Origin: an uncultured delta proteobacterium
GTDB taxonomy: Bacteria > Desulfobacterota > Desulfomonilia > Desulfomonilales > Desulfomonilaceae
Assembly: GCA_963789265.1 (NCBI GenBank)
Contig: CAWBKB010000006.1
Location: 192,001 to 256,000 of the forward strand
Length of the DNA stretch: 64,000 nt
Direction of reading: 5' to 3'
The notes beneath the pieces are model-generated. The model made no database searches. It worked only from the letters and a program-made list of their open reading frames with translations, and was not told the origin of the DNA. Position 1 is the stretch's first letter. Each line of letters begins with the position of its first letter. A program made the translations under genes and the position numbers. Positions 7,063-24,080 of the stretch are shown here, piece by piece.

Positions 7063-8037
7063 ATGGGAGTATTTGTCAAGACCTTCATGGAAATGACAAG
7101 GAAAGACCTTCAAATGGCGGGCGGTAAGGCGGCCAATCTTGGCGAGCTTACTCAGGCCGGGTTCGACGTGCCGCCCGGATTTTGCATTCTTAGCAAATCT
7201 TTAGACCATCACATCGAGTGCAACTCTTTAGACACCCGCATAAGTTCCATTGTAACCAAGTTCGATTATGAAGACTTCGCCCTGATGGAAGACAAGACGG
7301 CAGAGATACGCTCACTGATTGCGTCGGCCCCAATTCCCGATGACCTGAGTTCGGAACTCGTCGCTTCGATCGGAGAATTGGTCGGCCTCGACAACCCCTT
7401 TGTCGCAGTACGGTCATCGGTCGCGGTCAAAGACAGTGACATCTCTTCCTTTCCCGGCATGATGGACACCTTTCATTACGTGAAGGGGCACGCGGATATC
7501 ATCGAGCACGTGAAAATGTGTTGGGCTTCGCTATGGACGCTACGGGCCACGTTCAATCGAATGCACAAAGGCATAGATCACAAACTGGGCCTAATTGCGC
7601 CCATCATTCAGCGCATGGTTAATCCGGAAGCCGCGGGTATCTTGTTCACTGCCAACCCGATCACAGGCAATCGGGACGAGATGGTCATTGAATCGAACTG
7701 GGGGCTCGGAGAATCAGTGGTCTCAGGAAAGTCCATGAATGATTTCTTCCTGATCGACAAGTCCGACTTCACGATGAAAACCAAACAGATAGCCAAGAAG
7801 ACCCTCATGGTCTGTTTCGACAATGAAAAAGGGTGCGGACGCAAAGAACAAATGGTTTCGCCGGAGATGACAGGTGTTCCTACCATCCTGGACGATCAGG
7901 TGCGGCATTTGGCCGAGCTTGGTGTCAAAATCGAGGCATTGTTCGGGTTTCCCCAAGACATTGAATGGAGCTTCGAGAAAGAACAACTATTCGTGTTGCA
8001 AAGCAGAAACATAAGAACCTTGAAGCCTCGGGCGTGA
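7063..8037 (+). CDS. Stand-alone PEP-synthase/PPDK nucleotide-binding (ATP-grasp) subunit, phenylphosphate synthase beta-like
   Basis: GGKAANLGEL, AVRSS, WGLGESVVSG, PQDIEW and LQSR motifs; no His-carrier or pyruvate-binding domain. Alternative start 7021. Confidence 0.88.
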   Translation: MGVFVKTFMEMTRKDLQMAGGKAANLGELTQAGFDVPPGFCILSKSLDHHIECNSLDTRISSIVTKFDYEDFALMEDKTAEIRSLIASAPIPDDLSSELVASIGELVGLDNPFVAVRSSVAVKDSDISSFPGMMDTFHYVKGHADIIEHVKMCWASLWTLRATFNRMHKGIDHKLGLIAPIIQRMVNPEAAGILFTANPITGNRDEMVIESNWGLGESVVSGKSMNDFFLIDKSDFTMKTKQIAKKTLMVCFDNEKGCGRKEQMVSPEMTGVPTILDDQVRHLAELGVKIEALFGFPQDIEWSFEKEQLFVLQSRNIRTLKPRA

Positions 8038-8148
8038 AACAAGCTCATGCGTAATTTGGTTTGCAAAGAGTCTCTATTTTATCTCAAGGTTCACAACACA
8101 AATTTCGACCTGAAACCAAAAGGACACAAAACCTAGGAGGATTGCCAG

Positions 8149-9177
8149 ATGGGACAGAGAACCGTTGATGCGCACAATCACTTTTATCCCAAGGAATATC
8201 TTGATTATCTCGTCAGTAGGGGGTCCACTGAAACTCCTCATGCCAGGCATGACGGCGGTACCCATTATCGATGCTATTACAAGAACGTGGCTGTAGCTCA
8301 CATCGACCGCGCCGGGCATTTTGACCTGACGGAGAGAGTGAAAGATCTTGATGCCGGAGGACTTGATACTCAGCTTCTGAGCGTCACTATTCCCGGGCCT
8401 GAAACCCTGGAAAGGGACAAGGGCATATATTGGGCCATGAGATGCAATGACGCTTTGAAGAAAGCGATGGACGACTATCCCGGCCGTTTCTATTTCTTGG
8501 CGAGCCTGCCGTACCAGGATCCCGACGCCGCGTGCAAAGAGCTTGAACGATGCTACAAGATGGGTTGTAAGGGCATCCAAATGTTTTCGAATTTCAACGG
8601 GGAGCCCATTTTTCTGGAGAAGTATCACGGTATCTACGAATTGGCCAACAAGTGGGAACTTCCGATCCTCCTGCATCCGGCAGTGCCGATGACTGCCGAC
8701 GTGATGGATAAAGTTAAGGTACCTTACCAACTCTGGGGCTACACTCTCGACACAAGCTTGGCGGTGGTCAGTCTCATTTTTCAAGGCGTCATGGACAAGT
8801 ATCCGAATTTGAAATTAGTTCACGGGCACCTTGGTGGAATGATTCCCTATTTTGTGCGCAGGTTGCAGGATTCTTACAAAGGCTACGGCAAGGAATGGGG
8901 CATTGAGCTGAAGGAATCCCCGGACATAACTTACAAGACCAAGGTCTATCCGGATACTACCTCTTTCTATTTACCCGCAATGAAATGCTGCCTTGAGTGG
9001 ATAGGTGCAAGCCAAATGTGCGTAGGCACCGATTATGCTCACAGGGTCGGAGATCCGGAAGGCGCTATCAAGGCGGTAAAGGATCTTGGCGTTCAAGCGG
9101 GCCTCAGTCCGGAAGAGATCGACATGATTCTCGGCAAGAACCTGGAGAAGCTGTTCAAACTGCCGCCCATGCCTTAG
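8149..9177 (+). CDS. Amidohydrolase-2 family protein (ACMSD-like decarboxylase/hydratase fold)
   Basis: DAHNH metal motif, LLHP, HGHLGGMIPY and GTDYAH motifs; AGGAGG RBS. Confidence 0.85.
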   Translation: MGQRTVDAHNHFYPKEYLDYLVSRGSTETPHARHDGGTHYRCYYKNVAVAHIDRAGHFDLTERVKDLDAGGLDTQLLSVTIPGPETLERDKGIYWAMRCNDALKKAMDDYPGRFYFLASLPYQDPDAACKELERCYKMGCKGIQMFSNFNGEPIFLEKYHGIYELANKWELPILLHPAVPMTADVMDKVKVPYQLWGYTLDTSLAVVSLIFQGVMDKYPNLKLVHGHLGGMIPYFVRRLQDSYKGYGKEWGIELKESPDITYKTKVYPDTTSFYLPAMKCCLEWIGASQMCVGTDYAHRVGDPEGAIKAVKDLGVQAGLSPEEIDMILGKNLEKLFKLPPMP

Positions 9178-9493
9178 AAGACGATGGAGGTACAAAAAAC
9201 GTAAGCAGTTTTTTACCTCCTTCGATGGCAATCGTTCACCCGCAAAGAAAGATTCACCGCGGAGTGCGCCGAGATCGCAGAGGAAAGAATGGCTTAAACG
9301 GGCACCAAACACGTGTCCGGACCCATAGGCGTTAACTTAAGGCAATTTCGTTCCTTTTCAGGAGGTCCATGCAGGCCGAGGGCTATCAAAGTCCCCCTTT
9401 TGTAAAGGGGGATTTAGGGGGATTTTCAAGCAGTTATCCCAAAATCTCGTAGCCCCAGAGGCGTTAAAATAAGGCAACCCGTGCTACCTTATG

Positions 9494-9690
9494 AGCCCCA
9501 TAGGGGCGTCGAGATAGTAGCCCGGCAATTCATTGCCGGGTAGGCCGATAAACAGTGATTCAATCTTCGTCCCCGAGGGGCGCCCGAAGGATGCATCCTT
9601 CGGGCGCCCCTCGGGGACGAAGAAGGACCTCTTGGCGGTTCATCCCCGGCGATAAATCGCCGGGCTATTATCAGGATGTCCCTCCGGGAT
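9494..9690. repeat. Palindromic MITE/REP-like element
   Basis: tagcccggcaattcattgccggg ... ccccggcgataaatcgccgggcta arms around a central cgtccccgaggggcgcccgaaggatgcatccttcgggcgcccctcggggacg palindrome. Confidence 0.65.
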
Positions 9691-9945
9691 GAAGAGGACT
9701 TGAAGCTCATTTTAACGCTTATGGGGTCCGGACCCTCAGTCCGCCAGTGCAAATATTGCATTGTGATAGACTGGAGTCCCCCAAGGCTCGACATAAGCAA
9801 CCAACAGAGAAAATCACCTTCTCTGCGATCTCCACGGTGACCATTACCTCCGATGTTTAACGACCGTACGCCACTATCGCCGATCAGGAGCCTGGGATAA
9901 ATGCACGTGAATCGAGAGCCCCATGGGGAAACAGAGGTCCGGACC

Positions 9946-10678
9946 ATGGAGGTAAAGTGGTGCGGGTTTGACTACGGGCAATGCATTATGGAACCGGGTG
10001 GCTTGAGAAATCCGCTTGTTTTTGGGGACATTTACAAGGCATTGGGGCAGCCGGAACTTATCTCGGACAAGATTCGGAAGTATCGCATACTAAAAGAGAA
10101 GTACGGGTACGTACAGCGTCATTAAAGAAGGGCATCGAGGCGAGATCTACAGTTATGTCCTGGACAACGATCCGGAGGCCATCGAACTCTTCGGTCGAAA
10201 AGAACAGGAGCTGCTTCTCATAGGAGAAGGTTTGGAGCAAGCCCTCGCTTATCTTCAGCAGGCCGGCATTGAAGTGCAAGTTGTTTCGGAAATGAAGAAA
10301 ACTCTGGGACCGGTGGGGGCCGATGCTGTGTCTCGGTTCTTGAAAAGCAGGGGCCTGGTCAAGTATTTCAGAGAACTCGTCACGCCTCAGGGCAAGATCG
10401 ATTTGGAAACTGACTCCCTCGATCCCAAGTATGTAGGCTGCACAAAGCAAGAGGGGACACTCTATGAGGTTCTCGCCCGGGAACTCTCAAAACGGGGAAT
10501 TGAGCCTCACGAAGCTGTGATGGTGGGCGACAAACCTGAGACGGACATAAATCCCGCTCACGACCGGGGATTCAAAACAATACAATATAAAGGATTCATA
10601 GACCTGGGGGAATCAAAAGCGGACCTGGTCATCAATTCCTTTGAAGAGCTGACATCCATCCTGAAAAGGAAGGACTGA
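9946..10678 (+). CDS. HAD-superfamily hydrolase (putative phosphatase), apparent +1 frameshift at ~10106
   Basis: N-terminal WCGFDYGQC (motif I-like) and C-terminal MVGDKPETDINPA (motif IV). Removing one G before GTAC(10107) joins both parts. Confidence 0.78.
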
Positions 10679-10683
10679 GCATC

Positions 10684-11320
10684 ATGTTTAACGGAAAACC
10701 ATTGGCTCTTGTACTTGAATTTGAGGACGCTTCCAAAACCTCGGTCTCATTTGAGGCTCTTCCTGTACCAACTTCAGTGCGAACTCCTCAGGCAGCCCTT
10801 TGCCGGCAGGCCGCCTCGCGACTCTGTCGGCGACAAATTCGTCCTCATGGAATGGGCGGATGGATGGAAGGAAGTGGTTAAGGTCGCTGACACTTGCTCT
10901 GATATCGGTCGTTACTATGTTATTAACCGGCCTGAAGAGGTTGGGAGGCTGGCACTGCGCAACGGCGAAGGTTACCCCGAACTGGTTGAGGTCACCAGGA
11001 GACCATCGAACTTATCGAAAATAACCTTTTTGGACACATTCCGGCTGTCCCCCGGCCGTTCACTTAGAGAAGGGAAAAAGACGGATTGCTTTTTCGAGTT
11101 GACCGAAGTGGATAACTCCCTCGATCGAGCGGTGGAAGACCTGAAAAGAATACTGCAGGAGGAAAAAATAGATCCGAAAGATCTCAGGGGGAACGATTGG
11201 GGCGAGTTGCGGCAGCTATATGAACGTATACGGCGCAAAATGGGAATAGTCGTGGCGTACCGACAGCAAGACGTGTACGATTTCATTGCGCATCTCATCA
11301 AAAAGGCTGGTCTGCCTTGA
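10684..11320 (+). CDS. Hypothetical protein (~210 aa)
   Basis: 203-aa ORF 10709-11320 fills the operon gap. ATG 10684 joins it if one T before GTAC(10711) is removed. No family recognised. Confidence 0.6.
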
Positions 11321-11409
11321 CAATGGATGTTACCAATGAAGCCGTTCGGAACCGATATCGAGTGGAGAGACATAAGACGAGCGATAGCTTTCTTTTGCAC
11401 TGCATTGTG

Positions 11410-11549
11410 ACCATTCACTTACGCGTGGCAAAAGATTGTCATTGCGAGCAAAGCGAAGCAATCTTTTCCTTTAAACGCCGCTTAGATTGCTTCGTCGTTT
11501 GACTCCTCGCAATGACAAAGGACAGAATAGTCCTCGCGAAGTGAATGGT
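11410..11549. repeat. MITE-like element family A, short variant
   Basis: Terminal inverted repeats accattcacttacgcg ... cgcgaagtgaatggt around gtcattgcgagc...ctcgcaatgac. Confidence 0.8.
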
Positions 11550-11650
11550 TACCCCTGCTGCACACATTTTTGTGTATCTTTAGAGGAAGAATTCTTAAAA
11601 TGCCCTGACCCGCTTAAGAAAACCAGGGAAACGAGGAGGAGGTGAACGCT

Positions 11651-12781
11651 ATGAGGCTTTTCGAGCCCTACACTATTGGGAAGAAGCTTCAACTCAAAAA
11701 CCGTATCGTTATGCCGCCGGTGGTGACTCGTCTTGCCACGAGTGAAGGACACGTTACTGATAGCCTGATAGGAAGATACCTGCTGTATGGCAAAGGTGGA
11801 GCTGCGCTCGTGATTACGGAAGCCGTTTCCGTGAAGAAGCAGAAGAGCGGGCAACTCCTAAGATTGAATGACGATGAGTTCATCCCGGGGCTCAAGCAAT
11901 TGACCGATCGTGTTCACGCAGAGACCGACGCAAAGATCGCGCCTCAAATTATCCATTTTCTAAAAGTCGCTCGCAGCGGATATCGCCAAAAAGTCGAGGA
12001 TCTGTCAATCGAAGAGGTCAAAGAAATACCGCAACTGTTTGCTCAGGCAGCCTCTCGCGCGCGGCAAGCAGGGTTTGATGCAGTCGAGCTCCATTACGCC
12101 CACGCCTATACAATGGCATCGTTTCTTTCTCGCTACAACCGCAGAAAAGACGATTACGGCGGGTCACTGAAGAAACGTATTCACCTGGCTGAAGAAGTAG
12201 TCGAAACAACTCGCAAGGCAGTCGGAGACGATTTTGTGCTTGGGGCTCGAATCAATGGCGATGAGTTCACTCTTGGAGGAAACACGCTGGAGCAGTCCAG
12301 GAATATTGCGGTTAGGCTAGCTGAGTTGGGCCTCGATTACATAAGCGTTTCTGCAGGCGGGAAGTTTGAAGATGCGATCCACAAAGAAGGCGAGTCACTC
12401 GATCCATATACCGGATACAGCGGACGCCGAACCATGCCGCCTTCGTGGATGCCTGAAAAGGTAAATGTTTATTTGGCAGCCGACGTCAAGAGAACTCTCA
12501 ATGATGTCGGACACGGTACGACGATCATAACGGCCGGCAGGATTCCCACCGCGGAAGTAGCCGAAGGCGTACTCCGGAACAACGAGGCAGATCTGGTGGC
12601 CGTTGCAAGGCCGATTCTCGCGGATCCATACTGGCCGAACAAATACAGAGAAGGAAGAGAAAAGGACATTTTGAAATGCATCTACTGCAATAAATGTCGT
12701 GAGGCAGAGGGGGCTTTCGAAGAGGTTACTTGTTTTCAGTGGAAGAAGAAGGACGGAACAATCCAGATCCCTGCCCCCTAA
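11651..12781 (+). CDS. Old Yellow Enzyme family NADH:flavin oxidoreductase with C-terminal Fe-S motif
   Basis: LKNRIVMPP, AGFDAVELHYAHAY, NRRKDDYGGS, ARPILADP and CIYCNKC...C motifs. Alternative start 11642. Confidence 0.9.
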   Translation: MRLFEPYTIGKKLQLKNRIVMPPVVTRLATSEGHVTDSLIGRYLLYGKGGAALVITEAVSVKKQKSGQLLRLNDDEFIPGLKQLTDRVHAETDAKIAPQIIHFLKVARSGYRQKVEDLSIEEVKEIPQLFAQAASRARQAGFDAVELHYAHAYTMASFLSRYNRRKDDYGGSLKKRIHLAEEVVETTRKAVGDDFVLGARINGDEFTLGGNTLEQSRNIAVRLAELGLDYISVSAGGKFEDAIHKEGESLDPYTGYSGRRTMPPSWMPEKVNVYLAADVKRTLNDVGHGTTIITAGRIPTAEVAEGVLRNNEADLVAVARPILADPYWPNKYREGREKDILKCIYCNKCREAEGAFEEVTCFQWKKKDGTIQIPAP

Positions 12782-12857: not shown

Positions 12858-14514
12858 GTGACGCTAGACGGTTTCATTCCCTACGACAGAAGAGCGGCCC
12901 GGCTCTATGACAAACGGAGATGGTGGCTCGGACTGACTCTCGGGGGCATGTTCGACAAAGTCAGTGACATATATCCCACTCAGGAAGCGCTGGTTGGAGG
13001 CGGCAAGCGATATACTTATGAGGAGCTTCGTGAGTGCGTCGATCGGATGGCATGGAGCCTACTGGAGACCGGTTTGCGGCCCGGCGACCGCGTCCTCCTT
13101 CAGCTTCCGAACTGGCCCGAGTTCGTGATTTCTTACTTTGCTTGCCAGAAAGCCGCGCTGATAATTGTATTGCTCACGGTGAATCATACGGCCAGGGAGA
13201 TATCGCATTTGGCCGACCTTACCCGACCAAGTGCCTGGATAGCCCCTGCCCAGTACCGGGGAACGGATTTTCGCGTCCGGTTTGAAGAAGTTCGGCAGAA
13301 ATACCCGGACCTGAAGGTCATCGCTGTCGGCGAAGAAGTGCTGGTAGGCTGTCTGCGTTATGACGATCTCTTCAACACCGGAGCGGACGTCGGAGAGATA
13401 CGGGCCTCCTTGGAAAGAGTATCTCCCGAGCCTACAGACGTGTGCCAGATTCTGCCTTCAGGCGGCACCACCGGACTTCCGAAAGGGGCTCCCCGGACTC
13501 ACAGCGATTATCTTTGCAATGTGGAGTACAAGTCTCGCGCCTGGCACCTGAACGTTACCGACACGTGCCTGGTGGCTGCGACTGTGGGCCACAACCTTGC
13601 TCTCTTAGTTTGCATCACCGGTCCTATTTTTCACGGCGCCAAAGTTGTCATGCTGGATTCCTCTTATCCACGGGATTTTTGCCAAATTGTGCAGGACGAG
13701 AAAGTCACGTGCACCGGCCTAGTTCCGACACTCATGAGCCGCATTGCGTCATTCGACCGACTTGCAGAGTACTGATCTGAGTTCACTTAACAGGATCTAT
13801 GTCGGCGCTGCTTACAGCTCTCCGGAACTGGTTCGGCAAGTCGAAGAAAAAATAGGTTGCCGATACATTAATGCATTCGGTATGGTCGAAGGTCCGTGCT
13901 CTCAAACTCGTCCGGATGCCCCAATGGAAATGCGGTGCGCAACCATTGGCCGTCCGGTTTGTCCTTACGACGAGTTGGTCACGCTGGACCTGGAAGGTAA
14001 GAGAACCGCTCCGGGTGTCGAGGGCGAACTTGCCGCCAAGGGACCCGGCATTTTCACCGGGTACCTTAACAATCCAAACGCGAACAAAGACGCATTTACT
14101 GCGGATGGGTATTTCAAAACCGGAGATCTCGCCGTCATCGACGAGGCCGGGATCATACGAATTACCGGTCGGATCAAGGACATTATCATCCGGGGAGGGG
14201 AAAACATTGCGGCCCAGGAAGTCGAAGAGCTTATCTCGTCGCATCCCCTTGTACAAACTGTTTCAGTGGTGGGGATGCCGCATGCTGATCTGGGCGAAGA
14301 TCTCTGTGCATACATACAGCCTGTTCCCGGAGCGACCATAACCCAGGCGCAGATCGTTGACCATTTGCAGAAGGTCGGGGCGTCACGGATATTCTTCCCG
14401 GCAAGAACCGAATTCGTGAATCAACTGCCCCTGACTGCAGCGGGCAAGGTGGATAAGAAGGTTCTTCGAGCGGAGATAGCCGAAAAACAAAGAGCCGAAG
14501 CAGAAGCGAAATGA
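12858..14514 (+). CDS. Aryl/acyl-CoA ligase (2,3-dihydroxybenzoate-AMP ligase-like), apparent +1 frameshift at ~13773
   Basis: SGGTTGLPKG, FGMVEG, FKTGDL, GRIKDIIIRGGENI and LPLTAAGKVDK motifs. Removing the T after GTAC(13769) gives EYDLSSLNRI. Confidence 0.9.
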
Positions 14515-14581
14515 GGTCTGTCAATATCAAGCCGGTTTTATCGTATTTCGAAATAGCTGCATGCATACGAGGAGATGGCCT

Positions 14582-15343
14582 ATGAGCATAAAGGGAAAGA
14601 CAGTTGTTGTGACTGGGGGCGCGAAGGGCATTGGCAGAGCCATTGGACTGCGTATGGCACGTGACGGCGCAAACGTCGGAATTCTAGACATTGACCACGC
14701 ACTGGCGGCCAAAACGGCGAAGGAGATCGAAGCGCTCAATGTCCGGGCCATGGCGGTCGAATGCGACGTGACTGACTACGCAAAGGTCAAGGCGGCAGTG
14801 GGGACGATTCAGAGGGAGTTTGGGAGTGTGGACATTCTCATCAATAATGCCGGAATTGACAAATCGCAGTTCTTCGTCGACACCGACGAGGCAGTCTGGG
14901 ACCGCTTCATATCCGTGAATTATAAGAGCTTCCTGAACGCGACCCACGCCTGTCTGCCGTACATGATGGAGCAAAAGGGCGGAGTTATTGTAAGCCTCGG
15001 TTCCGATGCCGGCAGAGTCGGGAATTCGGGTGAAGTTGTTTATTGCGGAACAAAGGCAGCCATCATGGCAAGCTCCAAAGCTCTCGCACGCGAACTGGCG
15101 AGATTCAACATCCGGGTGAATAGCGTCAGCCCCGGCCCTGTACAAACTGATCTTTTGTCCGGTCTGCACGAAGGAGAAAAAGGCCAAAGGATCATGGAGG
15201 CGGTAGCCAAGATGATTCCATTGAAACGACTGGGCCTTCCTGAAGATGTCGCGGATGTTGTGGCGTTTCTTGCCGGCGATGATGCACGCTATATGACCGG
15301 CCAGGTACTTAGCGTAGACGGCGGGCTGACAATGATAGGGTGA
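14582..15343 (+). CDS. SDR oxidoreductase, BadH-like hydroxyacyl-CoA dehydrogenase
   Basis: TGGAKGIG, NNAG, SDAGRVGNSGEVVYCGTK and VDGGLTMIG motifs. Confidence 0.85.
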   Translation: MSIKGKTVVVTGGAKGIGRAIGLRMARDGANVGILDIDHALAAKTAKEIEALNVRAMAVECDVTDYAKVKAAVGTIQREFGSVDILINNAGIDKSQFFVDTDEAVWDRFISVNYKSFLNATHACLPYMMEQKGGVIVSLGSDAGRVGNSGEVVYCGTKAAIMASSKALARELARFNIRVNSVSPGPVQTDLLSGLHEGEKGQRIMEAVAKMIPLKRLGLPEDVADVVAFLAGDDARYMTGQVLSVDGGLTMIG

Positions 15344-15363
15344 AAAAGGAAAGGAGCCGACTG

Positions 15364-16488
15364 ATGGATTTTACGCTTCCCGATCATATTCTTAAAATCA
15401 AACAGGAAACGCGAGACTGGGTTGAGAATGTTTTGAATCCATTGTCAGCGCCATTGGAAGAGGAAGAGAGAATCCCCGAGGAACTCGTGGAGGCACTAAA
15501 GAAAGGCCGCTTCTTCGGGCTTACCATTCCGAAACAGTATGGGGGCCAAGGCTGGAGCGCCGTTGAATGGTTCACTGTTCTCGAAGAAATGGCTAAGGCA
15601 TACGCGACCGTGCGCCTTATAGCTCACTGTATGAACGGACTTTTCTGGAGGCCTTTGCTTTACTTTGGCACCGAGGAACAAAAAAATAAATATTTGACCA
15701 AACTGGCCACCGGGGAAATTTGGGCGGCAAACAGCCTCACAGAGCCTGAGGCGGGCACTGGAAAAGACATCAATTCAAAAGCAGCCACGGATGGGGATTA
15801 TTATGTTCTAAACGGACGCAAATGGCTCATCTCGCTCTTCCCGGGCTACACGAAGCTGATTTACGCCTTTGCTGCCACTGAAGAAGGGATTACGTCATTT
15901 CTCGTTGACATTCCCGCCGAAGGTGTGACCCTCGCACCGATGAAGAAGATGATGGGATGCGTTGGACCGCGGCACTACAACGTAGTCTACAAGGACTGCC
16001 GAGTCCCCGCTTCAAGCATTTTAGGTGAGAAAGGCAAAGGCTTGGACGTTGCATTCGGGATGCTTCATCTCAGCCGAGTGTCCATTGCCTTTTGCTGCAT
16101 AGGTTTGGCCCAAAAGATGCTCGATCTATCGATCGCTTACGCGAAGCAGAGGAGTACGTTCGGTAAACTCCTTGTTCAGCGGCAAGCCATTCAGAATAAT
16201 ATCGCGCAAATGGGAACCGAGATTCAGGCCGCGCGGCTGCTTGCCTACGAAGCCGCGTGGAAGTTCGACCAGGGACAGGACATCATTACTGCCGCTGCCA
16301 TGGCAAAATTGTTTGCCGAACAGGTGGTCATCCGCGTGTCGGAAATGGCGCTGAGAATGCACGGCGGCATCGGATACACGAAAGCCTACCCTCTGGAACG
16401 GCATTTCCGAGATGTCCGGTCTTTTCACTTTGAGGAGGGTACCGAGGAAATTCAGAAACTTCTGATAGCAAGACAGCTACTTCGATGA
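15364..16488 (+). CDS. Acyl-CoA dehydrogenase
   Basis: LTEPEAG, LNGRKWLIS, RSTFGK, HGGIGY and EEGTEEIQ motifs. Confidence 0.93.
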   Translation: MDFTLPDHILKIKQETRDWVENVLNPLSAPLEEEERIPEELVEALKKGRFFGLTIPKQYGGQGWSAVEWFTVLEEMAKAYATVRLIAHCMNGLFWRPLLYFGTEEQKNKYLTKLATGEIWAANSLTEPEAGTGKDINSKAATDGDYYVLNGRKWLISLFPGYTKLIYAFAATEEGITSFLVDIPAEGVTLAPMKKMMGCVGPRHYNVVYKDCRVPASSILGEKGKGLDVAFGMLHLSRVSIAFCCIGLAQKMLDLSIAYAKQRSTFGKLLVQRQAIQNNIAQMGTEIQAARLLAYEAAWKFDQGQDIITAAAMAKLFAEQVVIRVSEMALRMHGGIGYTKAYPLERHFRDVRSFHFEEGTEEIQKLLIARQLLR

Positions 16489-16856: not shown

Positions 16857-18146
16857 ATGAAGCCGAAAGACACTGGACGGAAAGAGGTAGGCAGACGGGA
16901 TTTCATCAAGACGGTGATGGCTGCCGGCGTCACTGTCGCAGGGATGCAGTTGTTACCCCAGACGTCGTTCGCGGCATCCAGGGGGTATATTCTGATCGGC
17001 CATCCAACCCCGGCCACCGGTCCACTTGCTGCCTTCGGAGAAACTTCCACATGGGCTGACAAGCTGGCTGCCAAAGAGATCAACAAGGACGGTGGCATAT
17101 TTATCAAGGACTTGGGCAAGAAGCTACCAATCAAAGTCAAATCCATGGACACGGAGAGCAATCCCACAAAAGCGGCTGAGGTTGCTTCCAAACTGATCCT
17201 GGAGGACAAGGTAGACCTTATGGTGGTCTTGCATACTCCGGACACGGTTAATCCGGTTGGCGCGATCTGCGAAAGGTATCAAGTCCCCTGCATTTCTGCG
17301 GCGGCCCCAATCGAACCCTGGTTGACCGGCGGACCCTACAAATGGACGTTCCACTACTTCTGGGGGTTGGGCGACATTATTACTGTCTTCACCGGCATGT
17401 GGAATGAATTCGCTGACAAGACCAACAAGGTGGTGGGAGGCTTCTGGCCCAATGACCCCGACGGCGCCGTGTGGGCCAAAGAGTTTGGCAAAAAACTCAA
17501 GGCCATGGGATACAAAGTCGTGGATGTGGGAAGATTCCCCTACGGAATGCAGGATTTCAGCAGTTTCATCAGCACCTGGCAAAAGGAAAAAGTTGAAATA
17601 TTGACGGGGGTGCCCATTCCGCCCGACTGGGCGACAGCCTGGCGGCAATGCCACCAGAAACAGTTTATTCCCAAAATTGCGACGATCGGTAAAGCCATTC
17701 TGTTCCCTGCCGCAGTTCAAGCCATTGGTGGAAATCTCGCCGAAGGCCTGTCTTCAGAAATCTGGTGGTCGCCGTGGCATCCTTTCAAGTCATCCTTGAC
17801 CGGAGTTTCCTGCAAAGGGCTTGCGGATCTGTGGACGAAAGAAACTTCCAGACAGTGGACTCAGCCCCTTGGTTTTGATTATGCAGCCTTTGAGATCGCG
17901 GCTGATGTGTTGAAAAGGGCTGCCTCTTTGGACAAAAAGAAGATCCGCGATGCGCTGGTTAAGACCGACCTGGACACGTTGGTGGGCCATATTAAATTCA
18001 ACGAGAAAAATTATGCTCTGACCCCATTGGTGGGCGGTCAATGGGTAAAAGGAAAGAAATGGCCCTGGGATCTCCAGATCGTTTATAATAAGGAGCATAC
18101 CAATATCCCGGTCACGGGAAAGATGTTGTTTCCTATCCCTCGATAA
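16857..18146 (+). CDS. Liv-type ABC substrate-binding protein with Tat signal
   Basis: GRRDFIK twin-arginine leader; periplasmic-binding-protein-6-like sequence; followed by livGFHM-like genes. Confidence 0.9.
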   Translation: MKPKDTGRKEVGRRDFIKTVMAAGVTVAGMQLLPQTSFAASRGYILIGHPTPATGPLAAFGETSTWADKLAAKEINKDGGIFIKDLGKKLPIKVKSMDTESNPTKAAEVASKLILEDKVDLMVVLHTPDTVNPVGAICERYQVPCISAAAPIEPWLTGGPYKWTFHYFWGLGDIITVFTGMWNEFADKTNKVVGGFWPNDPDGAVWAKEFGKKLKAMGYKVVDVGRFPYGMQDFSSFISTWQKEKVEILTGVPIPPDWATAWRQCHQKQFIPKIATIGKAILFPAAVQAIGGNLAEGLSSEIWWSPWHPFKSSLTGVSCKGLADLWTKETSRQWTQPLGFDYAAFEIAADVLKRAASLDKKKIRDALVKTDLDTLVGHIKFNEKNYALTPLVGGQWVKGKKWPWDLQIVYNKEHTNIPVTGKMLFPIPR

Positions 18147-18154
18147 CGAATATC

Positions 18155-18188
18155 TGAGGCTCTTCTTGATTCTTTGGGAAGAGCCTCA
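18155..18188 (+). terminator. Intercistronic stem-loop after the SBP gene
   Basis: tgaggctcttc...gaagagcctca perfect 11-bp stem with no U-tract. Confidence 0.5.
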
Positions 18189-18257
18189 TAGAAACCCGAA
18201 TGGAGTTATCTCTCCGACTCGCTTGGGGCATTCCATACACATAACCGGGACGAACCT

Positions 18258-18983
18258 ATGAGCCGCATTCTGACAGTTAATAGTCTTTATAAATCCTTCG
18301 GAAAAGTGGCAGCGGTAAACGATCTGAGATTCGAGGTGGATCGAGGGGAGATACTGGGCATAATCGGCCCCAATGGAGCGGGCAAGACCACCTTGTTTAA
18401 CCTCATATCCGGCGAGATCAAACCCGACCGGGGGAAAGTTGTATTCGACGGTGAAGATGTAACTAACGCGCACATGTACAAAAGATGCCGACAGGGCATA
18501 GCCCGGACCTATCAGATTCCCCGGCCCTTTCCGAACATGACCGTACTGGAAAACCTGTTGGTGGGCGCTACTTACGGCGCGGGAATGGGCCGCCGACAAT
18601 CCAAAGAGAAATGCGACCACATTCTGGAGAGAACCGGATTGGCCGGCAGAAGGGATGTCCGTGCCGGATCCTTACCGCTCTTGGATCGGAAGAGGCTGGA
18701 GTTGGCCAAGGCCCTGTCAACCGCACCGACTCTACTTTTAGTAGATGAAGTGGCGGGCGGACTCACTGAAGCGGAGGTGGAAGACGTCCTGGAAATCATT
18801 CGTTCAGTTCGGAAGGCTGGGGTTACCATACTCTGGGTGGAGCACATAGTCATGGCTATGCAAAAAGGCCCTGATCGGCTGCTGGTAATGGATTTCGGTC
18901 GAAACCTGTTTTGTGGCAAGCCCGATGAGGCCTTCAATTCGGAGGAAGTCCAGAAGGTCTATATGGGGACTGAGGAAGATTAA
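18258..18983 (+). CDS. Liv-type ABC ATP-binding protein (LivG-like)
   Basis: GPNGAGKTT Walker A, LLLVDE Walker B, WVEH. Confidence 0.93.
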   Translation: MSRILTVNSLYKSFGKVAAVNDLRFEVDRGEILGIIGPNGAGKTTLFNLISGEIKPDRGKVVFDGEDVTNAHMYKRCRQGIARTYQIPRPFPNMTVLENLLVGATYGAGMGRRQSKEKCDHILERTGLAGRRDVRAGSLPLLDRKRLELAKALSTAPTLLLVDEVAGGLTEAEVEDVLEIIRSVRKAGVTILWVEHIVMAMQKGPDRLLVMDFGRNLFCGKPDEAFNSEEVQKVYMGTEED

Positions 18984-19690
18984 TGGCCCTGCTGGAGATA
19001 CGGAATTTGGACGTTTTTCATGGGGAGTCCCGAGCCTTAACGAACATCGAGCTGGATGTCGAAAAAGGCCGGATCGTTTCCATATTGGGCGCTAATAGCG
19101 CCGGCAAGTCAACTCTCCTCATGACCGTCTGCGGACTCTTGAGGGCTAAGGCAGGCACCATCTGCTTCGACGGGAAGAGGATCGACGGTCTCGAGCCCTA
19201 TGAGATAGTCGACCTGGGAGTCGCTCTGGTCCCGGAAGGTCGGAAAGTGTTCTCGAGCCTGACCGTCCAAGAAAACCTGCTTATTGGATCTTACACTCCA
19301 AGGGCACGTAAAAAAAGGGATGAAACCATTGCGAGCGTGTTCGAGCTTTTTCCCATCCTCAAGATGAGGAGGCATCAGCAAGGCCCCAACCTGAGTGGTG
19401 GAGAGCAACAGATGCTGTCTATAGGCAGGGCTCTCATGTCGCGACCGAGTTTTCTCATCTTTGACGAGCTTTCTCTGGGGCTGACTCCGCTGGTGATCAA
19501 GGACCTTTACAAGGCTGTCAAAGAAATCAATCGGCGGGGTGTGACGGTAGTACTTGTGGAACAGGATGTGAAACGCAGCCTAAAGGTAGCAGACTTTGTC
19601 TACATTCTCCAAGAAGGCGCGATGGCACTGAAAGGCAATCCGCGATTCTTGTCCGAGGAGATTGTGAAGAGGGCCTACTTCGGTATTTGA
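18983..19690 (+). CDS. Liv-type ABC ATP-binding protein (LivF-like)
   Basis: GANSAGKST, VPEGRKVF and LSGGEQQM motifs. Confidence 0.93.
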   Translation: MALLEIRNLDVFHGESRALTNIELDVEKGRIVSILGANSAGKSTLLMTVCGLLRAKAGTICFDGKRIDGLEPYEIVDLGVALVPEGRKVFSSLTVQENLLIGSYTPRARKKRDETIASVFELFPILKMRRHQQGPNLSGGEQQMLSIGRALMSRPSFLIFDELSLGLTPLVIKDLYKAVKEINRRGVTVVLVEQDVKRSLKVADFVYILQEGAMALKGNPRFLSEEIVKRAYFGI

Positions 19691-19766
19691 ACTCCGGAGC
19701 CCGGACTTCGGCCACCGGACAAGCCGTTTTTTTTCGCAGCGGCACTGAGAAAAGAGTTAATACACG

Positions 19767-20630
19767 ATGTTGGAGTACCTGGAAGTGATTGTCAACGGCA
19801 TCTTGTTGGGTGGGCTGTATGCAACTGTGGGCATAGGGCTCTCCATGATCTTCGGAATCATGAGGCAGGTCAATCTGGCTCATGGCGAACTGATGATCCT
19901 TTCCGGCTATTTCAGTCTCCTGGTCATGCAGATATTGGGCATTCATCCTCTCTTGACCTTCTTCGCGGTTCTTCCCGCCATGTTTTTCTTCGGCTACGGG
20001 ATACAGGCATTTCTCTTGAACCGGGTTATGCACAGAGGCATGGAACCCTTCCTCATGATCTCATTCGGTCTCTCCATCATCATGCAGAATTCGATGCTGC
20101 TAATCTTTACTCCGGATGCCCGTACATTGGGGAGCAATCTGGCCGTCCAGAGCGTGGATGTGTTTGGTTACTTCCATCTGCCGGTGATTTATCTCGTCAA
20201 TTTCGGTGTGGCTCTCTTGATGCTGGTCTTGCTCCATCAGTTCATGAAAAGGACCTATCTCGGCTGGGCTATCAGCGCCGCGGCTGACGATCTCACCACT
20301 ACCAAACTTATGGGCATTGATCCCCAACGAGTCTACGCGCTGACCATGGGCATAGCGGCTGTCACTGCTGCCGTTTCAGGAATACTTGTCGGCGCGACTT
20401 TCACCTTTTACCCCCATTCCGGTACCCAGTACCTGATCACGGCTTTCGGCGTAGTCATTATCGGCGGCCTGGGAAGTCTACCGGGAACATTCTTGGGCGG
20501 CATGGTCCTCGGCGTCTCGCAGTTGATGGGCGGGCGTATCCTAGGTCCCGGATTTCAGACACTGAGCGGTTACCTCGTTCTGCTTGTTGTGTTGACCATA
20601 AGGCCTCAAGGAATACTTGGAAGGAGGTAA
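19767..20630 (+). CDS. Liv-type ABC permease (LivH-like)
   Basis: VNLAHGE, IIGGLGSLPG and RPQGILG motifs; hydrophobic. Confidence 0.93.
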   Translation: MLEYLEVIVNGILLGGLYATVGIGLSMIFGIMRQVNLAHGELMILSGYFSLLVMQILGIHPLLTFFAVLPAMFFFGYGIQAFLLNRVMHRGMEPFLMISFGLSIIMQNSMLLIFTPDARTLGSNLAVQSVDVFGYFHLPVIYLVNFGVALLMLVLLHQFMKRTYLGWAISAAADDLTTTKLMGIDPQRVYALTMGIAAVTAAVSGILVGATFTFYPHSGTQYLITAFGVVIIGGLGSLPGTFLGGMVLGVSQLMGGRILGPGFQTLSGYLVLLVVLTIRPQGILGRR

Positions 20631-20638
20631 CCTTCTGT

Positions 20639-21578
20639 ATGTCGGCAAACTCGATACGTGTGGCCGTGATGGTTCTTGCTGTGACAGCTCTGCTTACGCT
20701 TCCGGTTCTGGGCCTCTCGCTATGTTGTGAACGTTTGGTTGCTCATCTGTGTTTTCGCGGCCTTGGCATCCATGTGGAATCTGTTGGCCGGCTACTCGGG
20801 AATGGTTTCGCTCGGTCAGCAAATGTTTATCGGCTTGGGTGGATATACCCTGGCGGTATTGTCGCTGTACTATGGGATGCCGCTTTCATTGTCGGTTCTT
20901 CTCGGTGGGCTCATATCCACGATCCTGGCAGTAGTTATATCCATTCCGGTTTTCAGGATGAAAGGGGTATATTTCTCCATAGGGACTTGGGTCATTGCAG
21001 AGGCCTTAGGGATCTTTTTCAGCAACTGGGGTTACGTGAAATACGGAATGGGTTTGTTCATTCAGCCTGCATACAAAGTCTCCATGTCTGCCATTTACTA
21101 TGGCGCGGCCTTGCTGGCCATCGGATCGGTTGCTCTCGTCTACTGGTTGCTTCGTTCAAATTTAGGGATCGCCTTGATGGCCATCCGGGACGACGATGTG
21201 GCATCCCAGGCTATGGGCGTCAATATCTTTCGATGCAAGTTCATTTGCTTTCTCATTAGCGCTTTTGTGACAGGGACCGTAGCCGGAATATTGTATTTGA
21301 ACGCGGTATTCATTCAACCGTTTGACGCTTTCGGAATCGGTTGGACCGTGAAGCTGTTGTTTATAGTAATCATCGGAGGCATTGGAACCGTGGAAGGGCC
21401 GATTGTAGGCGCGGTAATCTTTGTGCTCCTCCAACAATACCTTTCGGAATACGTCGGATACAATCTCATCATCCTCGGTATAATCACCATTACTGCAGTT
21501 CTTTTCGCTCCCAGTGGCGTTGTGGGTGCCGTCCGGGAGAGGTACCGTCTTGAACTATTTCCGATTCGCCGTCAATAG
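20639..21578 (+). CDS. Liv-type ABC permease (LivM-like), apparent +1 frameshift at ~20705
   Basis: WNLLAGYSGMVSLGQ and IIGGIGTVEGP motifs. Removing one G in ccggttc joins ATG 20639 to the 20727 frame (PFWASRYVVNVW). Confidence 0.88.
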
Positions 21579-21630
21579 CCGCCGTCAGAAGTTACGTCTT
21601 TATCAATACACCTCAGAGGAGGGATCGAAA

Positions 21631-23353
21631 ATGATTGACAGAAGCATCTCGTCGATGAGAGCACTCAGACCCGACAGCAATTTCGACAAATCAATCTTTT
21701 GGTTTAGGGATGACCTCCATCAACCCTACACCATATCACCCATGGGCATGACTACTATACAGGCTCACCATGCCTGGGGCTATCATGTCGCCGCGGAGGT
21801 CACTAACCTCCCGCCTTCAAAGGGTGGGCATGTAAAAGTTTATAAAGGGAGGGTCTATATCGGATTTGCACTGATTGGCGATGTGGCGGAAATTGCCGAA
21901 CGAGAGCCGGAATTCACTAAATTGATCGAATACTGTCTGGGCCATTGGGATGATTACTATCAAAAGCATATAAAAGAAGTCATCTCAAATTTGGACACAC
22001 TTAACGGTGTCGATACCGATAAATTATTGCTGCCGCATCTGTTGGAGCACTTAAAACGCGCGGAAATATTAGATAGACGAAATTGGGAAATTCATTTCTG
22101 CCTAATGTATCCCGCGGACGCGGTCTATTTTACTTTCGAGGACTATTGCAAAAAGCATGGCCTGGAAGAAAAAGATTTCGTGAACATGCTCAGAGGCTTC
22201 GATAGCATCGCCACACAGACTGATGAGGAGATGTGGAACCTTGCTAAATTTGGAGAGGAGTGTGGCATAAAGGATTTGTTGTCCTACACGAACTCGGAAG
22301 AGTTATTGGAAGAACTAAAGAAGCACTCCGAGGCCAGGCCCTGGCTGGACAAATTTTATCGTTTCCTCAACATTTACGGCAATCGAGTAGTGGCTGCTCA
22401 CCTCGACGTCACTACTCCAACCTGGATTGAAGACCCTACTCCTGTTCTGGATACGATAAAAGGCTATTACAATCGGATCGAGGGCGGCTGGGATTTCTTT
22501 GAATCCAAGCAGCAAATTCGGGACGATAGAAGCAAGACGATCGCTGAATTTGAGGCCCGCTTGAATGACGATGCGGAGAAGGAGAACTTCAGGCAATTGC
22601 TCAAAGCGGCCCAGGGGGTCTATGCCTTCCAGGAAGATCATGGTTTCTATATAGACCAGGGTTCGACCGCCGCTTTGCGAAATGCCATCATCGGTTGCGG
22701 AAAGAGGCTGTTCCGACGAAAACTTATCGACCAGGTAGATGATGTTTGCTATCTTACCTACCCGGAACTAGTGGAGATTATGGAGGCTCTGGTCTACAAC
22801 GAAAAAGTTGCCAAGTATCACTACGGGGCACTGGTTCCGAATCTCATCAAGGAGAGGAAGGAAGACGCCCGGATGGCCACCGACTCGGATGCGCCTCTAA
22901 CTTTTGGAAATGTTCCTGAGAAGATGACCGATCCTATTGGCATTAAAGTGTTTGGGATCATTGATGAGATATTGCATCCCAAAGGAGAACGTAACATCGA
23001 AGAGAGACTGGAAGGCTTCCCCGGGTCTCCGGGCATTGTCGAAGGCCCCGCGAAAGTCATAATGGATTACAAGGATTTTCAGAAGGTGAAAGCTGGAGAG
23101 ATTTTGGTATGCCCCTACACTGGAACTGCCTGGACACCGCTTTTTGTGAAAATCGGCGGTGTTGTCACGGACACGGGCGGTATGCTGACCCACGCGGCCA
23201 TTGCCGCACGAGAGGTACAATATACCCGCTGTTGTGGGTACCTGGAATGCGACCAGATCGATAAACGACGGCGACATCATAAGGATTGACGGCAATGTGG
23301 GAATTGTCGAGGTAATAAAAAGAGCAGCGGCACAGGAGAAGGCAGACGCCTAA
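21631..23353 (+). CDS. PEP-utilising enzyme: substrate-binding domain plus phospho-His swivel domain (phenylphosphate synthase alpha-like), apparent +1 frameshift at ~23214
   Basis: GSPGIVEGPA, AWTPLF and GGMLTHAAIAARE (catalytic His). Removing one G before GTAC(23215) gives EYNIPAVVGT...IRIDGNVGIV, stop at 23351-23353. Confidence 0.88.
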
Positions 23354-23449
23354 TCCCACGACCCGCGGGATTTCCAACGGGAGGGGCATACCAAACTGGC
23401 TCAGGAGTGATCGGCGCAGAGGCCGGTTTGGACTCTCGCGTTTCCCTCG

Positions 23450-23522
23450 GACTCGGATCCAGGGATGGTAGGGGCGACCGGCGGGTCGCCCAGGGCGAAT
23501 GCCATTCGCCCCTACAGTTTTC
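23450..23522. repeat. GTAG-type double REP hairpin
   Basis: Near-identical inverted copy of 52311-52383. Confidence 0.75.
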
Positions 23523-23549
23523 CGGCGGTCCGCAAACATTGAGGTATGT

Positions 23550-24080
23550 ATGCCATTGTATGAATTTGAGGGGAAAATACCCCGGCTTGACCCGCAAGCG
23601 TTTGTTCACCCATTGGCTGTGCTTATTGGAGACGTGATAATTGAAGCTGGGTGTTATGTCGGCGCGGGCGCTGTGCTCCGAGGTGACATCGGTTCCGTGA
23701 GAGTCGGAAAGGGATCTAATGTCCAAGAGAATTGTGTTGTCCATACGTTTCCCGATAAAGCAACCACCATCCATCCGAATGCACATGTCGGACATGGATG
23801 CATACTCCACGGATGTGAGATCTGTTCCAACGTGCTCGTGGGCATGGGATCAATCGTAGGCGACGACGTCAAGATCAACTCCCGTTGCATCATAGGCGCG
23901 GGAAGCTTCGTTGAATTCGGGACTGAAATTCCGCCTGAAAGCGTAGCCGTGGGTTCACCGGCAAGAGTGGTCAAGCCCGCGGGGCCGGAGCATCTCAAAA
24001 GAATTGCGGATGGCCTAGCAATTTACCAGGAGCTTACAAGACGCTACCTCAAATCATTTAAACTCGCGTCGTGTGGTTAG
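23550..24080 (+). CDS. Gamma-carbonic-anhydrase family hexapeptide-repeat protein (PaaY/CaiE-like)
   Basis: AFVHPLAVLIGDV, LRGDIG, NVQENCVVH and HVGHGCILHGC motifs. Confidence 0.9.
   Translation: MPLYEFEGKIPRLDPQAFVHPLAVLIGDVIIEAGCYVGAGAVLRGDIGSVRVGKGSNVQENCVVHTFPDKATTIHPNAHVGHGCILHGCEICSNVLVGMGSIVGDDVKINSRCIIGAGSFVEFGTEIPPESVAVGSPARVVKPAGPEHLKRIADGLAIYQELTRRYLKSFKLASCG

Follow-up and report, generated by a model that had tools for sequence, protein, structure and literature searches.

The window analysed here is a stretch of 64,000 nucleotides from an uncultured delta proteobacterium of the Desulfomonilaceae (assembly GCA_963789265.1; genome G000, 6.06 Mb in 9 contigs), and corresponds to positions 192001-256000 of contig CAWBKB010000006.1 (C6). 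It contains a catabolic gene cluster that opens and closes with the two subunits of a predicted phenol-type dikinase, and whose conserved core we propose to be a five-part module that would activate and carboxylate an aromatic ring. Gene content was read from open reading frame (ORF) translations and from Pfam and NCBIfam profile searches of the window proteins. Between 4.8 and 24.9 kb every gene is on the + strand, and the features are, in order:

4782-6727, + strand: sigma54 enhancer-binding protein (the activator), with two PAS domains, an AAA+ sigma54-interaction domain and HTH_8 (Pfam)
6921-6936, + strand: sigma54-type -24/-12 element TGGCACGGAAAATGCT (pattern match)
7063-8037, + strand: PpsB-like ATP-grasp subunit with a PPDK_N domain (PF01326, E 5.7e-81)
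8149-9177, + strand: amidohydrolase_2 of the ACMSD/LigW decarboxylase branch (PF04909, E 9e-30, 104.8 bits)
9324-9727, no strand: inserted non-coding palindromic repeat (a gap relative to the same-genus genome G001)
9901-10678, + strand: atypical protein of the haloacid dehalogenase (HAD) superfamily, 258 aa (Pfam)
10675-11320, + strand: unk216, a 216-aa protein without known family (ORF)
11642-12781, + strand: FMN protein from the family of old yellow enzymes (OYE), 379 aa (PF00724, Oxidored_FMN)
12858-14514, + strand: AMP-binding ligase of DhbE/salicylate-AMP type (Pfam, PDB sequence matches)
14582-15343, + strand: short-chain dehydrogenase/reductase (SDR), best family match BadH-like (Pfam, TIGR03206)
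15340-16488, + strand: acyl-CoA dehydrogenase (ACAD) (Pfam; NCBIfam best match AcrC)
16857-21578, + strand: Liv-type ABC importer of five genes (Pfam), namely a binding protein (16857-18146, +), two ATPases (18258-18983 and 18983-19690, +) and two permeases (19767-20630 and about 20640-21578, +)
21631-23338, + strand: PpsA-like subunit with a phospho-His swivel domain (PF00391)
23499-24080, + strand: hexapeptide PaaY/CaiE/gamma-carbonic-anhydrase-like protein (Pfam)
24430-24912, + strand: single-domain response-regulator receiver protein (PF00072)

This content and order agree with what had been listed earlier from the letters alone (the original prediction), and the ORFs, Pfam and NCBIfam bear that list out, although the frame breaks described below were overlooked in it. 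The cluster had also been described as lacking a UbiD carboxylase; the Pfam search indeed gave no PF01977 match among the cluster proteins, the only two in the genome both lying on contig C3. Likewise, the cluster proteins gave no Pfam match to biotin carboxylase, carboxyltransferase or biotin carboxyl carrier protein domains or to a Mo hydroxylase. The conserved core contains neither an enoyl-CoA hydratase nor a thiolase, which leaves the suggested beta-oxidation weakly founded.

Six of the genes (activator, HAD, unk216, ligase, second permease and PpsA-like) each lie in two frames in the window. We compared them with G001, whose contig C14 is colinear with the window at 87-89% nucleotide identity and has all 17 genes open. 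Relative to it, single extra bases break the window genes as follows:

6397 and 6442: activator
10105: HAD
10764: unk216
13773: ligase
about 20700: second permease
23214: PpsA-like

Six of these seven gene-breaking insertions have a GTAC within 7 nt, and the other five of the 12 uncompensated indels relative to G001 are in or at spacers (18172-18201 and 20629). Moreover, contigs from two public runs (X1 and X2, both of study P1; depth 2-5, one contig per run) agree in lacking one base each at 10105, 13773, 20706 and 23214; they are otherwise identical to the window, and the omission restores the G001 frame. The window proteins are 80-96% identical to those of G001 and show no further damage. 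Split genes also occur elsewhere in the window, among them those of a thiolase, a binding protein, a 3HCDH and an SDR, with further breaks noted at 27161-28334, 35549-36442, 42034-42801 and 57592-58077 where these may be the same genes, and suggest that the problem is assembly-wide. That the cluster is a decaying pseudogene array with genuine frame breaks, as the number of broken genes and the three breaks not covered by the run contig reports (6397, 6442 and 10764) might suggest, is most improbable given the intact G001 genes, the clustering at one 4-mer, the run contigs that lack the extra base at all four sites they report, the split genes elsewhere and the otherwise undamaged proteins, and we rejected it. 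The frame breaks are thus most likely assembly artefacts and the operon intact, and hence the intact G001 proteins stood in for the broken window copies in all further analyses. The extra bases beside GTAC give the impression of a consensus error that is systematic in this assembly and perhaps tied to a methylation motif, and gene calls from this genome will be fragmented.

Two intergenic repeat families are also present. The ~400-bp element at 9324-9727, between the amidohydrolase and HAD genes and missing at the G001 site, is built as a nested palindrome (about 270 bp) that contains a perfect one of 60 nt at 9564-9623; blastn gives 122 matches to it across the genome, where it has about 120 partial copies. 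The second, at 11367-11563, measures about 145 bp and has 167 matches in the genome.

We next consider the two dikinase subunits, whose genes are 13.6 kb apart. The PPDK_N domain covers residues 32-335 of ORF 7021-8037, and the PpsB-like protein is 90% identical to its G001 ortholog. The window copy of the PpsA-like gene, which has NCBIfam matches of the PRK08296 type, is cut by the extra base at 23214; its intact G001 ortholog matches PF00391 over positions 2-72 of 72, and the catalytic His motif GGMLTHAAIAARE is conserved and lines up with the paralogs' His. When a tree was built for each subunit from 18 loci, one and the same clade of 13 loci emerged in both, with the three other Pps pairs of the genome as the exception, and both contain the sister pairs G000/G001, G314/G366 and L076/L083; the PpsB tree is a quick version in which L086 is discordant. 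The pairwise identities of the two subunits correlate with r = 0.93 over 153 non-independent pairs. In every genome with both ends readable, the cluster starts with the best PpsB-like gene and ends with the PpsA-like one. Conserved synteny across at least three families, matching trees and correlated identities thus uphold the proposed split pair, and the sequences support the assignment of the genes at 7063 and 21631 as cognate subunits of a two-component dikinase. Congruent component phylogenies have been described for this dikinase family (PMC9618137). PpsAB, CreHI and HpeHI have been grouped as 'two-component small-molecule dikinases' with a common mechanism, and all characterised two-component members of the subfamily are reported to act on phenolic hydroxyls (PMC12167813).

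Genome G000 has four PpsA-like and four split PpsB-like genes, the book-end pair included, and it could be argued that the two book-end genes are not partners and that each serves another paralog, more so since HpeH and HpeI form no stable complex (PMC12167813) and partner choice is therefore not structurally obvious. Yet in each of the other three pairs the two partners share a locus: one is adjacent at 58.3-61.1 kb of the window (58301-59983 and 60014-61084); another, adjacent on C3 and flanked by two UbiD genes, is of the canonical phenol type; and the third is on C1, with its genes 11 kb apart and a DDE transposase between them (G000:C1:1862000-1882000, locus L019). With the book-end pair co-inherited wherever both ends can be read and the two trees congruent, separate partners are hardly credible. 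The book-end PpsA-like protein is ~29% identical to the canonical PpsA on C3. Beside the pair at 58301-61084, the region 53708-64000 encodes an FAD amine-oxidase-like protein, an SDR, two unknown proteins and a xanthine-dehydrogenase-type Mo enzyme; this pair and the paralogous set on C1 probably belong to another dikinase-initiated pathway.

The arrangement of the cluster is not a chance juxtaposition, as the same gene order recurs in six genomes in which the whole cluster was read (G001, G062, G366, G314, G257 and Desulfocarbo indianensis). In G366, G314 and G257 all genes are present in window order; in Desulfocarbo the ABC genes are absent and the ACAD gene is directly followed by the PpsA-like gene, a junction that is also found, without importer, on a short contig of G035; the loci showing it are L008 and L011. 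PpsA-like orthologs with at least 72% identity occur in 3 of 60 related genomes, and matches with E <= 1e-150 (75-79% identity) in 4 of 400 genomes across the phylum, one of these being D. indianensis (G360). A scan of genome contigs with the PpsA-like protein gave four loci, that of D. indianensis SCBM included. A separate search lists at least 120 PpsA-like orthologs at 60% identity or more, and an ortholog from Desulfosarcina ovata is named in it. Judging from these sequences, the module is widespread in anoxic metagenomes. Four compact loci (L084, L094, L095 and L100) have the order ppsB, amidohydrolase, HAD, unk216, ppsA, followed by the OYE and ligase genes, and thereby delimit a five-gene core made up of the dikinase subunits, the amidohydrolase and the HAD-unk216 pair; in the window lineage the OYE, ligase, SDR, ACAD and ABC block stands inside this core.

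The cluster appears, moreover, to be linked to sigma54 control, in line with the original description of it as sigma54-driven, by the adjacent enhancer-binding protein and a -24 GG/-12 GC promoter element. PF00158 matches the activator at 4782-6727 with E 2.5e-62, and its G001 ortholog is intact with 647 aa. The element TGGCACGGAAAATGCT ends 127 nt before the ATG at 7063, in the intergenic gap upstream of the PpsB-like gene, and reads TGGCAC-N5-ATGC, with one mismatch to TGGCAC-N5-TTGCW. Matches to the pattern over the window are at chance level (30 versus 30.06 expected), single-mismatch copies numbering two of the 30, with 6921-6936 as one of them. The element is identical in G001, TGGCATCCTCATTGCA is found upstream of the Desulfocarbo counterpart gene, and similar elements occur in L024 and L068; with the patterns used, none was found upstream of the ppsB-like gene in G062, G366, G314, L034, L084, L094 or L100.

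The HAD protein and unk216 were analysed together. A scan with an unk216 alignment (A1) provided context from 80 metagenomic loci, and in 62 of the 64 with at least 400 nt upstream a HAD gene ends no more than 60 nt before unk216, the two genes overlapping by 4 nt in G001. In 1.84 billion proteins, unk216 has only 72 representative relatives with E no higher than 0.001. The protein has no Pfam or NCBIfam match and no PDB sequence match below E 0.9, and the ESM Atlas gave no usable feature match and structure rows with TM 0.33 or less. Its predicted structure (pLDDT 93.5, pTM 0.88) had no Foldseek match in the PDB with E up to 0.001 (TM by query no higher than 0.20) and a best Z of 4.6 in a wide VIA-align search, with none of 48,161 chains at Z 5. 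These searches do not prove that the fold is new or that relatives are lacking. We also considered unk216 as a PpsC, which is described as AcuB/CBS-like (PMC6114531), and rejected this since unk216 has no CBS match. A complex of HAD and unk216, modelled with alignments A2 (HAD) and A1, scored 0.71 (runs 0.74, 0.70 and 0.71) versus 0.01 for the best of three controls, the mark used for this score being reached by 116 of 157 solved complexes and by 2 of 215 mismatched pairs. The runs share at least 81% of contacts, with a partner pLDDT of at least 84, and the predicted interface includes the invariant R79, Y80, R91 and P101 of unk216 and R36 of HAD. We know of no similar complex, so a score owed to a structure already seen by the predictor seems unlikely. 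HAD and unk216 hence form a fixed gene pair, and the predicted complex supports their binding to each other.

The HAD model (pLDDT 86.9) has a Rossmannoid fold with a cap, and its top Foldseek matches are of the HAD-IA type (2hoq, E 2.3e-11, TM 0.60/0.65). Motifs II (T134), III (K182) and IV (G-D210-K..D215) are present. Motif I, by contrast, departs from the canonical D-x-D-x-T/V: it reads D24-F/Y-G26-Q-C/T (D-x-G-x-C/T), so that the nucleophile Asp is kept and the second Asp, the general acid/base, is replaced by a Gly that is invariant in 28 of 28 sequences of alignment A2. The HAD dephosphorylation first proposed is therefore not safe as plain hydrolysis. From these motifs we infer that the protein would accept phosphoryl groups carried by a good leaving group, aryl phosphates for instance, and would not work as a plain phosphatase.

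The amidohydrolase belongs to the decarboxylase branch, alongside LigW, ACMSD and gamma-resorcylate decarboxylase (gamma-RSD). It matches PF04909 with 104.8 bits (cut-off 26.4), its nearest solved chains are LigW (8.4e-30) and ACMSD (2e-27), and the PDB list (8.4e-30 to 1e-15) is headed by LigW, ACMSD, gamma-RSD, 2,3-DHBD and SDC. Aligned with human ACMSD, it matches DAHNH, HP, GH-GG and GTDY together with two Arg and one Trp; we take the aligned HxH, His, His and Asp to be the metal ligands and the catalytic His. The gene is single copy in G000; in loci L029, L061, L066 and L068 the ACAD gene is followed by another amidohydrolase_2 paralog, which shares 38-42% identity with the first and is absent from G000.

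The genes beside HAD-unk216 point to what the amidohydrolase might do. Of the 35 loci whose flanks are long enough, 25 carry amidohydrolase_2 near the pair and 6 carry UbiD; none carries both and 4 carry neither. UbiD is also found beside the pair in three shorter loci. In one of the UbiD type, L050, the order is UbiD, then HAD, unk216, an unknown gene, PpsA, PpsB, UbiD, receiver and UPF0261, and by its gene content this locus is a phenylphosphate-type system that uses the same HAD-unk216 pair. Such alternation of amidohydrolase_2 and UbiD favours carboxylation among the activities first entertained, which had been worded as (de)carboxylation or hydration. Ortho-decarboxylases of the amidohydrolase superfamily (AHS) are reversible and carboxylate phenols ortho to the hydroxyl, against an unfavourable equilibrium that calls for 2-3 M bicarbonate in vitro, and phenylphosphate carboxylase instead relies on ATP-dependent phosphorylation (PMC6644310). 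The four loci with neither gene are L056 and L059 (ubiE-type methyltransferase and trpD), L046 (UPF0261) and L099 (a distant PpsA). In the first two (L056:7379-9765 and L059:1852-4221) the pair has a divergently oriented ubiE/COQ5-type methyltransferase and trpD as neighbours, and neither a carboxylase nor a dikinase is close by, which hints at a role beyond aromatic catabolism in some lineages. UPF0261-family proteins occur beside Pps, UbiD or HAD-unk216 genes in L037, L046, L050, L052, L053, L055 and L086, and flank the canonical Pps-UbiD locus of the genome (G000:C3:978001-979194 and 987983-989170).

The ligase, taken from the outset to be an aryl-CoA ligase, is of the DhbE/salicylate-AMP type: its PDB matches are DhbE (3.7e-89) and the salicylate-AMP ligase 5wm2 (4.6e-89), with the next group at 1e-80 to 1e-72. 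It has AMP-binding and AMP-binding_C domains, misses all NCBIfam equivalog cut-offs, and reads HNLALL where the two compared sequences read HNYPLS and HNFALA, the H-N motif being presumably an acid-pocket feature of aryl-acid adenylating enzymes. The OYE combines an FMN barrel with a C-terminal CxxCxxCx11C, with none of its four Cys varying among the 28 homologs compared. Its NCBIfam matches end at positions 344-358 of profiles of 642-645 positions (the N-terminal half of FadH/BaiCD), and the FAD/NAD(P)H domain of the FadH/BaiCD/NCR type is absent from the 379-aa protein, so electrons must come from another protein. The best NCBIfam match of the SDR is BadH (TIGR03206; 265.5 bits, under the cut-off of 431.2), and that of the ACAD is AcrC (291 bits, below cut-off), within AcrC/cyclohexanecarboxyl-CoA-type families.

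The ABC importer is an accessory module, found in most cluster versions and missing in Desulfocarbo and G035, and the ligand of its binding protein could not be inferred from the weak PDB matches (3.8e-10 at best, to amino-acid and aromatic-acid binders). The hexapeptide protein has NCBIfam matches to PaaY (179.6 bits), CaiE (164.8) and gamma-CA (139.5), all under cut-offs, and its gene is conserved after the PpsA-like gene in G001, G366, G314, G257 and L034. Receiver proteins of ~160 aa recur beside PpsB-like genes in both amidohydrolase-type and UbiD-type loci, with homologs between ppsB-like and amidohydrolase genes in L024, L028, L061 and L068, and beside Pps genes in L050 and on C1 (L019:19476-19973).

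From these data we propose that the conserved core is a five-part 'activate and carboxylate' module within an intact, sigma54-controlled catabolic operon, a scheme in which the chemical steps, the direction of the amidohydrolase reaction and the substrate are all inferred. What the sequences themselves show is the make-up of the cluster, its intactness and conservation, the co-evolution of the dikinase subunits, and the HAD-unk216 pairing with either amidohydrolase_2 or UbiD beside it. The PpsB-like and PpsA-like subunits would act as a two-component dikinase and convert a phenolic, possibly enolic, substrate to its phosphate ester with ATP going to AMP and Pi. The amidohydrolase and the HAD-unk216 heterodimer would then jointly take off the phosphoryl group and add CO2 to the ring at a position ortho to the hydroxyl thus freed or to a neighbouring one, the amidohydrolase replacing the UbiD subunits of phenylphosphate carboxylase in what would be an ATP-driven biological Kolbe-Schmitt reaction. 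The ligase would produce a 2-hydroxyaroyl-CoA, and the FMN/[4Fe-4S] OYE, fed by an external low-potential donor, could work with the BadH-like SDR and the ACAD to bring the thioester to central metabolism; the importer, the PaaY/gamma-carbonic-anhydrase-like protein and the receiver would be accessory. Conversion of hydroquinone to gentisate is one candidate substrate route. This sequence, in which an aryl phosphate is ortho-carboxylated at the expense of ATP, then activated to a CoA ester and reduced by the OYE, is the reading that we prefer, tentatively and without calling it probable. The original prediction survives in it in part: the dikinase pair, the sigma54 link, the absence of UbiD and, within the literature searched, the lack of a match to a known pathway stand; the beta-oxidation is weak and the plain HAD hydrolysis unsafe.

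Several points weigh against ortho-carboxylation. AHS ortho-decarboxylases chelate the free phenolate and an aryl phosphate is no obvious substrate for them, so the scheme needs on-enzyme dephosphorylation or else another hydroxyl that is free; the HAD protein, with Gly where motif I should have its second Asp, is not a canonical phosphatase; and its complex with unk216 is a model and not a measurement. The HAD-unk216 pair stands alone in 4 of the 35 loci and may thus have a more general role, and the metagenomic loci counted are non-independent, L068 and L069 looking like the same stretch. Nor is the ligase type strong evidence for an ortho-hydroxy acid, since the phenol cluster of Desulfatiglans anilini, whose product is 4-hydroxybenzoate, includes an induced DhbE-like ligase of unknown role (PMC6114531). 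Finally, the Liv-type importer hints at an already carboxylated anionic substrate, with which decarboxylation fits better.

In the strongest alternative, the phosphate would be a protecting or handle group on the phenolic hydroxyl of an imported aromatic acid. The amidohydrolase would then catalyse decarboxylation, hydration or C-C/lactone hydrolysis, running in its favoured direction; phosphorylated intermediates would be the substrates of the ligase, OYE, SDR and ACAD, and HAD-unk216 would remove the phosphate last. There are precedents in CreHI and HpeHI, where later enzymes accept only phosphorylated intermediates (PMC12167813, PMC9618137); decarboxylation is the favoured AHS direction (PMC6644310), and in anaerobic clusters for aromatics the amidohydrolases ThnN and BamU are regarded as candidates for ring hydrolysis (PMC12016498). 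The importer in most cluster versions and the second amidohydrolase_2 paralog after ACAD in four loci fit as well. On the other hand, the exchange of amidohydrolase_2 for UbiD within PpsAB contexts points to a shared carboxylase slot, the compact five-gene order suggests joint action at the first steps, and Desulfocarbo and G035 do without the importer. We consider a protecting phosphate possible but doubtful.

A non-phenolic substrate is less likely still. The dikinase would in that case make the lactim or enol phosphate of an N-heterocyclic lactam, a hydroxypyridine or quinolinone, or an alicyclic beta-dicarbonyl enol; the OYE would reduce a ring C=C, the amidohydrolase would open or decarboxylate the ring, and the resulting acid would be CoA-activated. 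The ACMSD/IDCase branch does include N-heterocycle enzymes, the combination of OYE, amidohydrolase, ligase, ACAD and SDR suits a logic of reducing, opening and beta-oxidising, and paralogous Pps pairs of the genome stand beside xanthine-dehydrogenase-type Mo hydroxylases. The cluster itself, however, has no Mo hydroxylase, its ligase is nearest to hydroxybenzoate-activating enzymes, and phenolic hydroxyls are the reported target of every characterised subfamily dikinase (PMC12167813).

Returning to ortho-carboxylation of an aryl phosphate, a bolder version of it can be imagined, though we think it unlikely in full: a three-part carboxylase, supplied with aryl phosphate by a dedicated dikinase, that consists of an ACMSD-family metal enzyme, a D-x-G HAD taking the phosphoryl group and a novel-fold subunit, and yields an ortho-hydroxy acid with neither prFMN nor UbiD; a 2-hydroxyaroyl-CoA that is dearomatised or dehydroxylated by a ferredoxin-type OYE without benzoyl-CoA reductase; and, in these genes, the set behind orphan routes of the hydroquinone-gentisate-gentisyl-CoA type.

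How the cluster relates to known systems was examined against the literature searched, in which no published pathway matching it was found, most subscription journals and the supplements of the Hpe papers, with their kinase trees, being outside the coverage; those supplements (PMC9618137 Figs S3 and S4; PMC12167813) may already show a clade with these kinases. The route had been called undescribed, and within that literature no characterised pathway matched it. Phenylphosphate synthase and CreHI had been named as relatives of the dikinase, and Hpe/Acv, the closest known scheme of kinase, carboxylase, HAD and CoA synthetase, had been missed. What is new in this analysis is the fixed HAD-unk216 pair and the alternation of amidohydrolase_2 and UbiD beside it.

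The first relative is the PpsAB(C) plus PpcABCD system of Thauera aromatica, Geobacter and D. anilini. Like it, the cluster has a two-component phospho-His plus ATP-grasp dikinase, an anaerobic setting and sigma54-type control, and in our proposal carboxylation would be tied to phosphate loss with a HAD-type protein and followed by CoA ligation; the sister locus L050 joins HAD-unk216 with UbiD and PpsAB. Thauera phenylphosphate carboxylase requires a HAD-like delta subunit for use of the phosphate ester, and the carboxylation step has eluded demonstration in reducers of sulfate and iron (PMC6114531). In contrast to Pps/Ppc, the cluster has an ACMSD-family amidohydrolase_2 in place of the UbiD alpha/beta subunits, an extra partner in unk216, no CBS-type PpsC, and dikinase genes that are 13.6 kb apart, the dikinase being only ~29% identical to the canonical PpsA on C3. 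Its HAD protein has 258 aa and D-x-G, unlike the 18-kDa, KdsC-like Ppc delta (PMC6114531), and ortho instead of para carboxylation would be expected.

In the Hpe/Acv systems of Rhodococcus rhodochrous GD02 and Sphingobium SYK-6, the kinase HpeHI is followed by a carboxylase that acts on the phosphorylated intermediate, the NagD-like HAD phosphatase HpeD and an AMP-forming CoA synthetase (PMC9618137), and our proposed scheme has the same order of kinase, carboxylase, HAD and CoA synthetase. There, however, a biotin-dependent HpeCBA works on an acetyl side chain in aerobes, whereas here there is no biotin enzyme but a candidate metal-dependent ring (de)carboxylase, with OYE, SDR and ACAD and not a beta-ketoacyl-CoA hydrolase. 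CreHI-CreD, for 4-cresol in Corynebacterium glutamicum, likewise starts phenol catabolism with a two-component dikinase and uses a phosphohydrolase later (PMC12167813, PMC9618137), but is aerobic and depends on P450 oxidation of the methyl group, with no carboxylation, CoA ligase or OYE.

With the ACMSD-related decarboxylases, which reversibly ortho-carboxylate phenols (PMC6644310), the amidohydrolase shares the aligned HxH, His, His and Asp; known members are, unlike it, stand-alone catabolic enzymes, and we found no report, in the available text of PMC6849830 and PMC6644310 among others, of an AHS decarboxylase that is accompanied by a dikinase or a HAD partner or that acts on an aryl phosphate. 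If our proposal is correct, phosphorylation-dependent phenol carboxylation, known only with UbiD- or biotin-type carboxylases, gains a metal-dependent type, and its natural ATP coupling would show how to drive AHS carboxylation in biocatalysis, which otherwise takes 2-3 M bicarbonate (PMC6644310). It would also provide candidate genes for orphan pathways such as that of hydroquinone, and possibly for other phenolics. For the anaerobic route from hydroquinone through gentisate and gentisyl-CoA to benzoyl-CoA in Desulfococcus sp. Hy5 and Syntrophus gentianae, a 2013 review calls the enzymes, the carboxylase and the dehydroxylase, 'uncharacterized' (PMC3727088). That route resembles our scheme in ortho-carboxylation, the CoA ester of a 2-hydroxy acid, oxygen-sensitive reductive processing and its occurrence in sulfate-reducing Desulfobacterota; the assignment is that of a candidate only. 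The hypothesis is directly testable, as the module is present in the cultured D. indianensis SCBM, whose cluster was read, and an ortholog of D. ovata is also listed. Altogether, the cluster is by its gene content a member of neither the Pps/Ppc nor the Hpe type, having no UbiD and no biotin carboxylase, and plausibly represents a variant of phosphorylation-initiated aromatic catabolism with a new type of carboxylase and a new protein family.

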